Source: Candidatus Moanibacter sp. (lineage in GTDB: Bacteria; Verrucomicrobiota; Verrucomicrobiia; Opitutales; UBA2987). From it: a stretch of DNA of 64,000 bases. The stretch lies in assembly GCA_965215885.1 (NCBI GenBank), contig CBDCEW010000094.1:1-64000 (forward strand). The letters are read 5' to 3'. The position numbers and the translations under genes are program-made. This document shows positions 19,504 through 61,133 of this stretch, in pieces. The notes under the pieces were generated by a model. It did no database searches and was not told the origin of the DNA. It saw nothing but the letters and a program-made list of their open reading frames with translations. Every line of letters begins with the position of its first letter. The first letter of the stretch is position 1.

Positions 19504-19604
19504 CTAGGAATCTGTCGGTCCAAGCATTCGGAATTCGCGGATATAATTCGCTATCCGTGAGTGATTTTGCATTTCGGGAGATTCGACCACCGACATATTC
19601 CTAG
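19504..19604. mobile_element. CTAG-flanked MITE-like element, module A
   Basis: CTAG-GAATCTGTCGGT ... ACCGACATATTC-CTAG. Confidence 0.65.
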
Positions 19605-21986: not shown

Positions 21987-22090
21987 TCCTAGCGCAGCGA
22001 AGCCGCAACCAAAAAAGAATAAGAGAACCGCAGATGAACGCAGATGGACGCGAATGCAGAAGGAAACTCCTACTTCCCTTGGGTAACCTC
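21987..22090 (+). repeat. Dispersed repeat A, partial copy
   Basis: Near-identical to 38908-39010. Confidence 0.8.
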
Positions 22091-22498
22091 TTCTTCGCGT
22101 TTCAGGCTCTGCCCTACAACAGAGAGGTCCCGCTCAGCTGGATCGACTCCTGCCTCGGCGTATGGAATAGGCAATTTCCTGCTTTCCTTATACAAATGTC
22201 AATCTGTGGTCTAAGGAAATTTTCCTGGTGAGACATTCTATTCTGAGAGACAGAACGATATTTCCCGAACAACAACGAGTTGTATTTGCGGCTAGAAATT
22301 TCCTTCTTAAGCAAACAAGCCCTGTCGAGTTAGTAGTAGAGGGGACTTCAGCGGGATCGATGTCGGAAGGGCCTCGAGCTGAGCTCCGTCGCAGGACTAT
22401 TTCCTTTCACTTCCCGCTTCCGGCTCACGTGTGGTGGTTCATTGTTCCAACGGCCAGATTTATATCTTCGAATTTGCCGAACTGGGTACTAGGAATCT

Positions 22499-22504
22499 TA
22501 TAGT
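22499..22504 (+). promoter_or_regulatory. -10 box (TATAGT) of the IS110 circle-junction promoter
   Basis: 17 nt from TTGACG (24178-24183) once the ends are joined. Confidence 0.8.
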
Positions 22505-22509
22505 AGCTC

Positions 22510-22801
22510 CAGGTTATTCATCCAAGGGGCCGAGTGGAGCCGCAGGAAAAACTCGGCGAGGCCCCTTTGTGAATAACTTGGCCGATCAGTGGTTGGCGAT
22601 GGGTCAAAGAGTTTGTTTGGCTAAGGGTGAAAATATTCAAAGGCAGCCGTCCACTACGAACTTAGGAATCAGTCCGAAGAGGACTTCCGACAGAATTTCG
22701 AGTGGACGGCCTGCCTGGATGACCGAAAACGAACACTCAGTTTACATCCTCATAACAGGATCCAACTATAAGGACTTCGCCTGGACATCCAGTGCCTTTG
22801 A
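22510..22801 (+). ncRNA. IS110 bridge RNA (5' hairpin domain, target-binding loop, donor-binding loop); ends approximate
   Basis: Guides TAGGAATC and TCCGACAGA match the target; CTCAGTTTAC and ACTATAAG match the donor junction; each pair lies in an internal loop closed by stems. Confidence 0.85.
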
Positions 22802-22835
22802 AAAAAGCAAAAAGACAAACTAAAGGAACAAAGGG

Positions 22836-24146
22836 ATGCAGAAAAGGGAAAAAACAAATCGATATAGTGTGGTGATAGGAATTGATTGGGCGGATCAGAA
22901 AAACGATCTGTGGATCATAGAGAGCGAAACGGGAAAAGGGACCCATCGACAGGTGGCGCAGGATGCGGTCAGCTTGCACGAATTTGCCGTAGAGATGAGA
23001 GAAAAGTATGCCAGCGTGGGCAAGCGCATGGCCATGGTGGTGGACCAGAAGCGAGGAGGGTTGATCAACTTTCTGATGGGCTTGGAGTTTGTCGATATCT
23101 ATCCAGTGCATGCGGCCAGGGCGAAGGATTATCGCCGGGCGCTGTATCCATCAGGGGCCAAGAGCGACCCGGTCGATGCGCAAATACACGCGGAGTTTTT
23201 CCTCAAACATCCCGAGCTTTTTACCAAATGTTTCATACCTGACACGGCCCAAACACGGGAGCTGAACCTGTTGTGCGAGGACCGCCGTGGATTCGTCGAT
23301 CAGGCTACCAGCCTCGAACAGCAGTTGGGCAGTTGTCTGAAGCAATATAACCCTTTGGTCTTGAAATTGTTCGATGATCTAGGCAGTGGCCTGTGCCTGC
23401 ACTTTATATTGCGTTGGCCGACCCTCAAGAAGCTGCACAGAGCATCGGAGGGTGTCTTGCGAAAGTTCTTCTATAAGCACAACTGTCGCAGTGACGCCAA
23501 AATCCAGGAGCGTCTCGAATTGATCGGTAACGCACGAGCCTTGACCGAAGATGCAGCCATCATTGAAGCATCCAGCAGAAAAGCACAGACGTTGGCCGGA
23601 CAGCTTTTGACCCTGTGCCCGCAGATCAAAGCGTATGAGAAGCGTATCAGGGAGCTATTCAGAAGCCATCCCGATGCAGCCGTGTTCAGTGGCATTCCCG
23701 GAGCCGGCGAGGTCATGAGTCCCCGGTTGCTGTGCGCGTTCGGGACCGATCGTTCGCACTTCGAAACGGCCCAGAACATGACCCAGTGGAATGGATCCGC
23801 TCCGGTCACGATCAACAGCGGGCAGGACAAAAGAACCGGACAACCGAAACGAATGGTCAACTGGCGGTGGGCGGCTCCTACCTTCGTGCGGCAAAGTTTC
23901 GTTGAATTTGCCGAACATTCGATCCGAAACTGTGCCTGGGCAAAGGCCTTTTACCAGATCAAAAAAGAACAGGGCAAACCCCGCCAAACCATTCTTCGTG
24001 CCCTCGCTCTCAAGTGGACCCGCATTCTGTTTCGCTGTTGGCAAAATAGCGAACGCTACGATGAGCAAAAGTATCTCCAATCGCTCCAACGCACCGGTTC
24101 ACCGGTGTGGAAAAGACTTCAGCAAGCAAATGCCAACGCCTTGTAA
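22836..24146 (+). CDS. IS110-family recombinase (RuvC-like DEDD domain + Tnp20 domain)
   Basis: IGIDWADQK, KSDPVDA, GIPGAG, APVTINSG, ILRALALKW. Confidence 0.95.
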   Translation: MQKREKTNRYSVVIGIDWADQKNDLWIIESETGKGTHRQVAQDAVSLHEFAVEMREKYASVGKRMAMVVDQKRGGLINFLMGLEFVDIYPVHAARAKDYRRALYPSGAKSDPVDAQIHAEFFLKHPELFTKCFIPDTAQTRELNLLCEDRRGFVDQATSLEQQLGSCLKQYNPLVLKLFDDLGSGLCLHFILRWPTLKKLHRASEGVLRKFFYKHNCRSDAKIQERLELIGNARALTEDAAIIEASSRKAQTLAGQLLTLCPQIKAYEKRIRELFRSHPDAAVFSGIPGAGEVMSPRLLCAFGTDRSHFETAQNMTQWNGSAPVTINSGQDKRTGQPKRMVNWRWAAPTFVRQSFVEFAEHSIRNCAWAKAFYQIKKEQGKPRQTILRALALKWTRILFRCWQNSERYDEQKYLQSLQRTGSPVWKRLQQANANAL

Positions 24147-24177
24147 ACACAACATGAGAAAAAACTCAAAAAATCCC

Positions 24178-24183
24178 TTGACG
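24178..24183 (+). promoter_or_regulatory. Outward-facing -35 box (TTGACG) in the IS110 right end
   Basis: Pairs with TATAGT at 17-nt spacing in the circular form. Confidence 0.8.
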
Positions 24184-24200
24184 GACTACCTCAGTTTTCT

Positions 24201-24534
24201 GTCGGACTTAGCAATCCTGACATTTCCGAAGTGCAAATTTCAAGGTGAGGACTCGACATTCCGATCCAGATGAGACCGACAGATTCCTTGGAAGAAAATG
24301 AACCTGAGATTTGAGAAATATTTTCATATCAATTCCTTTCTCGAATACAGATCTCATGATTAAAGATTGTCGCTTTCGGGTTGATCGTGTCAATATGGTC
24401 CATAGCGAAACCGATGAGCAAGATTTTGTACGCTTTCCCACAAATCTCAGATTCATTTTCTCAATTCTAGCAGCTTGTCGGAATGAACCCGAGTAATCTC
24501 TTCGAAAGGGGCATAAAGTCCGACAAGCTGCTAG
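24201..24534. repeat. Three consecutive inverted-repeat modules A-B-C (MITE cluster); A interrupted by IS110
   Basis: A right arm 24276-24288; B 24293-24313/24441-24461; C CTAG-CAGCTTGTCGGA 24467-24482 / TCCGACAAGCTG-CTAG 24519-24534. Confidence 0.75.
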
Positions 24535-47762: not shown

Positions 47763-48064
47763 CTAGGAATCTGTCGGACTTTGTGATTCGATCGCTTTAC
47801 AAACACCAAATTCCGTCCGACAGATTCCTATAAAGAAAATGAAACTGAATTTTGGGACCAAATGACTCACTTAATCCTCTTCAAATGATTAACCGGCAAG
47901 GAAAGCGAATGCTTTTCCATGTCGCTGTGAAAGTTTGGCCCTGATTTTCGCATCTCGAGCACACTTCCACCAAAATTCAGTTTCATTTTCTTGTTTCTAG
48001 CAGCCTGTCGGAATGAATTCGAATGATCATTTTGAAAGAATTACAAAGTCCGACAGGCTGCTAG
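47763..48064. repeat. Second A-B-C inverted-repeat cluster with empty IS110 target sites
   Basis: A 47763-47830; B perfect 23-bp IR 47833-47855/47970-47992; C 47997-48064. Confidence 0.8.
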
Positions 48065-60560: not shown

Positions 60561-61133
60561 TTCGATTCGCCAGGAATCTGTCGGACTAAATACCTCTCAC
60601 TCAGATGAAGGGTCAAACTAAACAGTCTGCTTTCTGCTTAATTCTGGTTGCCAACATGGGCAAAAAAACAGGAGGGGACAATGCGTCACTTTCACACGCC
60701 TCGTTCCGGGCTCCCTGATCTGGCGACCGCGGGAGGACTAGGATTCGCAAAGAGTTAACCCGCTGATGCAGTAGCCATACCACTGTTCCTTGCGGTGATC
60801 GAGCGATCAAGGAGGAAAGCTAAACCCAGGCTCTATTCGATCAGGGTAGCGAGGTTCACTGACAAGCACGGTGGTATGGGGCGAAGCCCACCGTGGGAAA
60901 AATCTTAAAACAGAGTCCTGAAGCGTTAACTTCGCTTCCAACTTCGCCCTCCGACTACGATTGGCATGCAGTGCAGGCTCTTCGACTCGGCTCAGTGCAG
61001 GCAGTGCGACTGTTTTCCAAGCGCGCTCCCCGCCTGCTGATCCCGCTCAGCAGAAGAAGGTAGGCAGGACGTAGTGCGGAAGAGAAATCCTTGCTCCGGT
61101 AGGCGATGAAATTGCTATTGTTTTACCCCGGCC

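Follow-up and report, generated by a model that had tools for sequence, protein, structure and literature searches.

The 64,000-nt window analyzed here (the whole stretch, positions 1-64000 of contig C94) comes from a 6.36-Mb draft genome of Candidatus Moanibacter sp. (G000; 105 contigs, 53% G+C) and carries, at positions 22499-24200 on the plus strand, a 1702-bp insertion sequence (IS) of the IS110 group that is very probably an active element directed by its own bridge RNA to the arms of a short palindromic repeat. Five kinds of observation support this explanation: the anatomy of the element, the complementarity of its RNA guides to both target and donor, a genome-wide census of its insertions, the joint variation of guide and target in a sister element, and the covariation of RNA base pairs among distant relatives. 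Both the mechanism and the family membership are those of the known IS110 bridge-recombinase group.

The 1702 bp, which include one copy of a CT core, run from TATAGTAGCTCC at the left end to CCTCAGTTTTCT at the right end and lack terminal inverted repeats. The recombinase gene (22836-24146, plus strand, 436 aa) leaves non-coding ends of 337 bp on the left and 54 bp on the right. Its product exceeds the cut-offs of both family domains, which agrees with the initial annotation of the element as an IS110: the N-terminal DEDD RuvC-like domain PF01548 spans residues 14-173 (1.2e-17, 64.5 bits vs a cut-off of 29), and the C-terminal Transposase_20 domain PF02371 is matched at 2.3e-9 (38 bits vs a cut-off of 21.3). 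The protein also distantly matches the solved transposases of ISCro4 (E 9e-5) and IS621 (E 2e-4). Its SDPVDA stretch is aligned with the D-x-x-D of ISCro4, and GIPGAGEVMS is aligned with IPGIGEKTS of the solved ISCro4 chain (the GxG...S stretch), whose aligned serine we take to be catalytic, as in IS621. The left flank of the IS reads ...GGGTAC TAGGAATCT, with its last base at 22498, and the right flank begins at 24201 with GTCGGACTTAGC (GTCGGAC). As had been proposed, deletion of 22499-24200 in silico restores the target, CTAGGAATCTGTCGGAC, and there is no target duplication beyond the shared CT. This core is common to 22497-98 and 24199-24200, and the cut can equally be placed two bases leftward. 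The left half of the occupied target (TAGGAATCT, 22490-22498, plus strand) was read from the sequence and has the core as its last two bases, and the remainder of the interrupted 98-bp palindromic repeat (24201-24289, plus strand) starts at the right target half GTCGGAC and reaches through the second arm, which at 24275-24289 reads AAGGAATCTGTCGGT on the minus strand.

Upstream of the recombinase gene, folding and a covariance model delineate a bridge RNA core (22636-22802, plus strand) with a closing stem and two stem-loops, each containing an internal loop. The fold of 22630-22810 reaches -66 kcal/mol (z = -7.3), and a structure drawn by hand comprises 47 pairs at -52.4 kcal/mol. In the predicted structure, each stem-loop would be composed of an outer stem, a conserved CGAA/UUCG inner stem, the internal loop and a capping hairpin. 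The first loop corresponds to the target and the second to the donor. Within the former, the left target guide CTTAGGAATC (22661-22670, plus strand) contains 8 nt, TAGGAATC, that are identical to the top strand of the left target, and the right target guide TCCGACAGAAT (22686-22696, plus strand) contains 9 nt, TCCGACAGA, that are complementary to the target top strand TCTGTCGGA. The donor guides match the joined ends of the IS itself: the left donor guide CACTCAGTTTAC (22734-22745, plus strand), which carries CTCAGTTTAC, matches CTCAGTTT of the right end, and the ACTATAAG portion of the right donor guide CCAACTATAAGGAC (22762-22775, plus strand) is complementary to CTTATAGT, a sequence formed by the core and the first bases of the left end. 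Moreover, the CUAUAAG of the right donor guide is kept in relatives whose left ends start with TATAG. The claim that guides in a left-end RNA match the repeat arm is therefore borne out, with the complementarity read from the sequence and the structure taken from the fold.

By analogy with IS621, a DEDD/serine recombinase would be guided by this left-end RNA. The left target guide TAGGAATC has the sequence of the top strand to the left of the CT core, so that its pairing partner would be the bottom strand. The right target guide TCCGACAGA would pair with the top strand, and its complementarity to that strand starts one base ahead of the core and extends through GTCGGA. The two target guides together would specify about 15 nt, TAGGAAT-CT-GTCGGA, and the donor loop would read the joined IS ends in the same manner (CTCAGTTT..CT and CTTATAGT). 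A circular intermediate and transcription of the RNA are presumed steps of the cycle. Because the roughly 15 nt specified are the terminal arm of the repeat, the IS lands almost only in arms, in either arm, and with its left end outward.

Searched for the 15-mer TAGGAATCTGTCGGA with up to two mismatches, the window yields seven matches, where 0.08 would be expected and none of 100 shuffles gave as many. Exact matches lie at 47764-47778 (plus strand) and 47816-47830 (minus strand) and are the two arms of an unoccupied 67-bp member of the repeat (47764-47830, with a perfect 15-nt target in each arm, one per strand). Matches with one mismatch are located at 19505-19519 and 60571-60585 (both plus strand), and those with two mismatches at 19589-19603 and 24275-24289 (both minus strand) and at 22663-22677 (plus strand), the last of which lies within the IS and is no target, being the guide loop of the bridge RNA. 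The stretch 19505-19603 is an unoccupied 99-bp member whose arms are one and two mismatches away from the 15-mer, and 60571-60585 is a lone near-match, CAGGAATCTGTCGGA, identical to the variant found at three occupied sites elsewhere in the genome. The empty and near-match sites listed in the initial annotation thus exist, at coordinates correct within one base.

Across G000, a BLAST search recovered ten full copies of the IS with 99.8-100% identity and an identical RNA sequence in all ten, together with a 491-bp piece at the start of a contig and a 211-bp relic. In nine of the ten full copies, [T/C]AGGAATCT abuts the left end and GTCGG[A/T] the right end, and four of these nine rebuild the exact 15-mer, which itself occurs 124 times in the genome. 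The invariant 13-mer AGGAATCTGTCGG has 256 further, unoccupied occurrences, compared with about 0.2 expected from base composition, which puts the occupancy at 9/265, or about 3%. The initial annotation had called for this genome-wide count and occupied fraction, and had held that a rare motif, with other copies of the IS lying outside it, would speak against targeting of the arm; the count shows an abundant motif and nine of ten copies in an arm. The relic mentioned above (C99:54428-54638; 211 bp, 97% nucleotide identity over IS positions 1200-1409) has its edge about 25 bp away from an intact, unoccupied arm (C99:54388-54402).

A sister IS (79% amino acid and about 80% nucleotide identity) is present in G006, a genome of another genus of the same family (8.3 Mb in three contigs). 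All 23 RNA copies read there carry TAGGAGGC as the left target guide, the right target guide is identical to that of the G000 element, and 21 of 23 right flanks start with GTCGGAC. The 23 readable left junctions consist of TAGGAGTCT (20 copies), TAGGAGGCT (two) and TAGGAGCCT (one), all of which fit TAGGAG[T/G/C]CT; the G000 form TAGGAATCT was found in none of the 23. Empty sites in G006 comprise 222 copies of TAGGAATCTGTCGGA and 198 of TAGGAGTCTGTCGGA. Assuming independent insertions that ignore the base by which these two forms differ, the probability of finding none of the 23 at the G000 form would be (198/420)^23, or about 3e-8 by our own arithmetic. In G000, the empty A and G sites number 124 and 4, respectively, and all nine targeted copies occupy the A form. 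The guide base and the base of the occupied site thus shift in step between the two genomes, indicating that guide and target change together. In addition, insertions of about 2.4 kb interrupt two sister IS copies in G006 (L032/L038 and L033/L037) after element position 76-165, leaving the left-end piece and the remainder 2.4 kb apart.

We also examined whether the RNA structure recurs in more distant elements obtained by a search across genomes. A covariance model (R1) was built from two sequences, the G000 and G006 elements, together with the hand-drawn structure, and 12 loci were searched. R1 matched upstream of the recombinase gene in five of the 12 loci (E 8e-12 to 7e-7), whose recombinases are 34-44% identical in protein sequence, and a sixth relative (32% protein identity) gave a weak match (E 0.057). 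In the resulting alignment, 37 of the 47 pairs have changed on both sides and 92.7% of the alignment cells pair; sliding the partners lowered pairing to 28-45%, and none of 500 shuffles reached the observed values. The sequences of the guide loops vary among these relatives. At loci L040, L039, L042 and L045, the 6-9 nt next to the element's own TATAG left end are repeated at the left-guide position, and at L046 guide and flank agree only after a one-base shift. A search of genome contigs for related loci with a single protein produced 61 pattern matches, none of which was confirmed.

The tenth full copy in G000 (C84:54652-56355, minus strand) departs from the arm rule. It is inserted between CCTCAGTTTACT and TATGGGGAGC (right side TATGG), inside a long uninterrupted gene-like stretch outside the repeats, where neither arm is present. 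This site matches the left donor guide across the core and not the target guides: its left side, CTCAGTTTAC, agrees with the left donor guide at 10 of 10 positions, exceeding the match of the IS's own right end. A donor-like "half-match" (LD-type) class of off-target insertion has been shown experimentally for IS621 (bioRxiv 10.64898/2026.08.31.748434), and the C84 copy fits the class described there. That work used engineered and cell-free systems, whereas the C84 copy would be a fixed natural case.

The same copy bears on the idea that the arms belong to the IS as its own terminal inverted repeats, in which case the mobile unit would be arm-IS-arm and the short repeats would be its deletion derivatives. 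The IS does lie between two inverted arms in six copies. However, the identical 1702-bp unit recurs with varied interiors and at either type of end, and has no second arm in three copies; the donor loop matches the ends of the 1702-bp unit, not the arms; and the C84 copy, with neither arm, contradicts the idea directly. In addition, terminal inverted repeats are not a feature of the IS110 family (PMC11208160), and the left arm is broken by the IS 9 nt from the arm's end, which makes the arm an interrupted sequence and not a flanking one. We consider this reading scarcely credible.

Another possibility is that the recombinase recognizes the hairpin or palindrome of the repeat, with RNA complementarity being secondary or coincidental. 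Six of the nine targeted copies lie within complete two-armed elements of 98-100 bp, as such recognition would suggest, and a 2026 preprint presents the target stem-loop of ISPpu10 as an extra specificity determinant. On the other hand, the remaining three of the nine copies are located in solo or truncated arms (one of them between tRNA-His and tRNA-Arg), and a single guide base tracks a single site base between G000 and G006 although both site variants are equally palindromic. It also counts against hairpin recognition that the differing guides of the distant relatives copy their own unrelated flanks, and that the off-target copy, in a gene-like stretch with no repeat, matches the donor guide. 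Recognition of the hairpin as the principal determinant is thus very improbable, and guidance by the bridge RNA remains the favored explanation.

Several points weigh against RNA guidance as formulated here. With six of nine copies in two-armed elements, a contribution of the hairpin is inseparable from that of base pairing. The second base of the core is left unpaired by the guides: in both loops, the guide is followed by A at the position of the core T. Immediately before the core, the base is mismatched in both elements' donor guides and also in the G006 target guide (G vs T), so that the pairing register near the core is assumed rather than demonstrated; the corresponding donor position of IS621 is unusually tolerant of mismatches (Durrant et al., PMC11208160). 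An Rfam scan of 22300-24400 (E ≤1) matched no family that would independently confirm the RNA. The alignment of relatives was fitted to R1, which favors the structure. Finally, among Logan contigs from 24 sequencing runs, which are unable to show rare forms, none joins 24200 to 22499 or bridges the empty site 22498/24201. One joint within these data, 22014 to 24198 (side 21), was traced to an empty repeat on contig C91 and is a repeat artefact.

Further features of the element were read from the sequence. The left end opens with TATAGT, a -10-like hexamer (22499-22504, plus strand), and the 54-bp right end (24147-24200, plus strand) contains TTGACG at 24178-24183 and the left donor half CCTCAGTTTTCT at 24189-24200. 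Joining of the ends in a circle would give TTGACG-17 nt-TATAGT, and this arrangement, whose hexamers and spacing are identical in the G006 sister IS, may act as a junction promoter. A long hairpin, GGTTATTCA...TGAATAACT (22511-22580, plus strand), lies upstream of the bridge RNA core, and a comparable GTTATT...AATAAC hairpin lies upstream of the RNA in relatives L040, L039, L046 and L045.

The Logan contigs also provide weak information on copy number and transcription. In run X1, the IS contig has a depth of 48.2 vs 4.1 for the unique flank, which would fit about 11 copies, though depths are not copy numbers, and one left junction seen in X1 and X4 is absent from the assembly. Contigs from RNA libraries cover 22552-22785 (X17) and 22491-22791 (X18) with depth above that of the 5' part of the gene. 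This coverage offers a weak hint of a transcribed RNA, given that contigs show neither levels nor ends, that the libraries come from one study and that DNA carry-over is possible. Separately, a stretch of about 90 bp at 21991-22081 has far higher contig depth than the sequence around it in three runs (276 vs 4-12 in X1), which suggests another high-copy short repeat.

The target repeat is a family of elements 37-99 bp long. Among 495 motif matches (two or fewer mismatches) in G000, 115 pairs of a plus-strand arm followed by a minus-strand arm were found, including size classes of 36-37 bp (21 pairs), 66-67 bp (10), 89-90 bp (11) and 97-99 bp (58). The elements read TAGGAATCTGTCGGAC...GTCCGACAGATTCCTA, preceded by C and followed by G. 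The 37-bp class is a plain hairpin, and in the 98-bp class the sequence directly internal to the arm distinguishes one end from the other (GTCGGACTTAG vs GTCGGTCTCAT), with the IS occurring in both ends. The initial annotation had placed the target in one arm of the repeat; targeting of an arm holds, but the restriction to one of them does not, as both arms and either type of end are used, the site being present in both since the arms are inverted copies of each other. Of the 256 empty 13-mer sites, only 56 fall inside open frames of at least 200 codons, which span 77% of the genome, and hence the notion of many safe intergenic landing pads is upheld. A distinct element of about 176 bp, with inverted ends of about 22 nt (GAAGAAAATGAACCTGAGATTTG...CAAATCTCAGATTCATTTTCTC), directly follows the interrupted repeat at 24291-24466. 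At many loci, the same end sequence is found immediately beside the arm or beside other hairpins ending in CTAG, and about half of the 98-bp repeats precede this element, which looks like a second family resembling miniature inverted-repeat transposable elements (MITEs), nested beside the first.

The nature of the repeat itself, which had been called a MITE, is a separate question. It has the traits of one, namely terminal inverted repeats of 14-16 nt, small size, lack of coding capacity and many copies, and the elements read C/TA GGAATC...GATTCC TA/G, in which the TA is either a duplication or part of the repeat. An autonomous partner was not found, in that no arm-to-arm length of 400-4000 bp recurs in G000 except that of the IS110 itself (G006 was not scanned), and the arm-bounded intervals of this size hold ordinary-looking genes with no transposase-like frame. 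Candidate partners were rejected: neither the IS630-like element nor a 1894-bp IS has ends related to the arms, and nothing arm-bounded was found in searches for IS630-like elements, IS4/IS5-like elements (151 DDE_Tnp_1 matches) or DDE_Tnp_1_2. An empty paralogous site was likewise not found for the short two-armed pairs tested. The single informative paralogous pair, on contig C87 (flanks about 87% identical), has a 98-bp form and a 37-bp form at the same position. Paralogous loci with the 98-bp or 37-bp form occur at C87:186-283, C87:40183-40280 and C87:43290-43326, and the size classes may interconvert in place. The terminal inverted repeats and the TA/CTAG context agree with the earlier designation, but it is not established, as neither an autonomous partner nor an empty paralogous site was found.

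The alternative is that the landing pad is a host-maintained palindrome of the repetitive extragenic palindrome (REP) or REPIN type, or another structured intergenic motif, rather than a MITE; this bears only on the identity of the landing pad and not on the targeting mechanism. Repeats that are short, palindromic, present in hundreds of copies and mostly outside long frames would be expected in that case, as would the plain hairpin of the 37-bp class. The C87 pair suits internal remodeling better than fresh insertion, and the missing empty site among the short two-armed pairs, together with the lack of an arm-bounded element with a transposase and of any recurrent interval length except that of the IS, points in the same direction. 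By contrast, an association with RAYTs was rejected: none of the 29 Y1_Tnp (RAYT/IS200-type) matches is flanked by arms, 27 have no arm motif (two or fewer mismatches) within 2.5 kb, and the other two have motifs 1.9-2.4 kb away. The distribution of the family is patchy, with 289 matches (one or no mismatch) in G000, 734 in G006 and 0-3 in each of the 29 other relatives searched, including two of G006's own genus, which suits a mobile element more than a conserved host motif. Also unfavorable to a REP are the arms ending in TA within CTAG, which resembles the duplication made by a TA-inserting DDE transposon, and the size classes, which share terminal inverted repeats of 14-16 bp and differ in their interiors. 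On balance, the repeat looks MITE-like but is unproven, and we regard a REP-type identity as a serious contender that falls somewhat short of probable. G000 is rich in IS elements in general: DDE_Tnp_1 matches from several families number at least 151, the 1894-bp IS has more than 60 near-identical copies (e.g., C105:136391-138284), and there are also about 20 copies of an IS of about 1855 bp (e.g., C68:35882-37736; one copy is inserted at CCTAGG within a repeat-like element), two IS630-like copies and nine near-identical IS200-like Y1 open reading frames.

Two structural oddities are bounded by copies of the IS. On C84, a 15-kb inverted duplication (C84:1-15348 and C84:43679-55142, 99.6-99.8% identity) has arms that differ by two 1.9-kb IS insertions; one of its edges falls within the off-target IS110 copy, and it also holds the IS piece at the contig start. 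A genuine rearrangement, a mixture of strains and a fold-back artefact of assembly are all possible sources of this structure. In the other case, C25:10926-13166 and C59:14586-16826 share an IS110 copy plus 520 bp of right flank at 99.9% identity up to the end of C59, their left flanks diverge from the half-site outwards, and the C59 flank resembles the tRNA-adjacent flank of the copy on C104. Homologous recombination, strain mixture or assembly error could have caused both, and RNA-guided rearrangement between landing pads, which the initial annotation had raised, is speculation.

Compared with known systems, the element resembles IS621 of E. coli, the founding bridge-RNA element of the IS110 family, with which it shares the two protein domains, the CT core, a left-end RNA with target and donor loops, the senses of the guides and a multicopy palindrome as target. 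For IS621, pairing of the left guides to the bottom strand and of the right guides to the top strand has been described, as have a multicopy extragenic palindrome (REP) as the natural target and longer right target guides in some orthologues (PMC11208160). The present element differs in its distant protein (E 2e-4, in the C-terminal part; 436 aa vs a solved chain of 328 aa), in a right target guide of 9 nt vs the native 4 bp (bioRxiv 10.64898/2026.08.31.748434), and in its repeat family and phylum-level background. ISPpu9 and ISPpu10 of Pseudomonas putida are likewise IS110-family elements whose copies all lie in one conserved intergenic or REP repeat, and the target of ISPpu10 forms a stem-loop; no segmental amplification is demonstrated for the present element. 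Among titles and abstract openings, we found no report of an IS110 element aimed at a MITE, which does not show that none is in print.

IS4321 and IS5075 target transposons at their terminal inverted repeats; they belong to the IS1111 group, with subterminal inverted repeats and the RNA on the other side. In contrast, the 337-bp left end and 54-bp right end found here represent the IS110-group layout, and the target is a tiny non-coding repeat, not a large transposon.

About 10-23 copies of the IS per genome are present amid hundreds of half- or full-matching sites. As a tentative and rather unlikely extension, the IS110 lineage and the palindromic repeat might form a nested, co-diversifying pair, in which sister IS lineages of different genera have retuned one guide base to arm sub-families that differ by single bases (TAGGAATCT vs TAGGAGTCT), the repeat serves as an evolving lineage-specific safe harbor, and half-match recombination drives the duplications on C84 and C25/C59. 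The understanding of how IS110 elements choose their targets is left unchanged by this study, and its added value is modest, lying in the one-base co-variation and the donor-like off-target copy. The 9-nt right target guide, together with a distant and longer recombinase, may be of interest for the mining of bridge recombinases, and the C84 copy would be one fixed natural insertion that fits a half-match class so far described from engineered systems. For the IS110 family, the two sister elements provide a clean natural case in which guides one base apart discriminate perfectly between one-base variants of a repeat.

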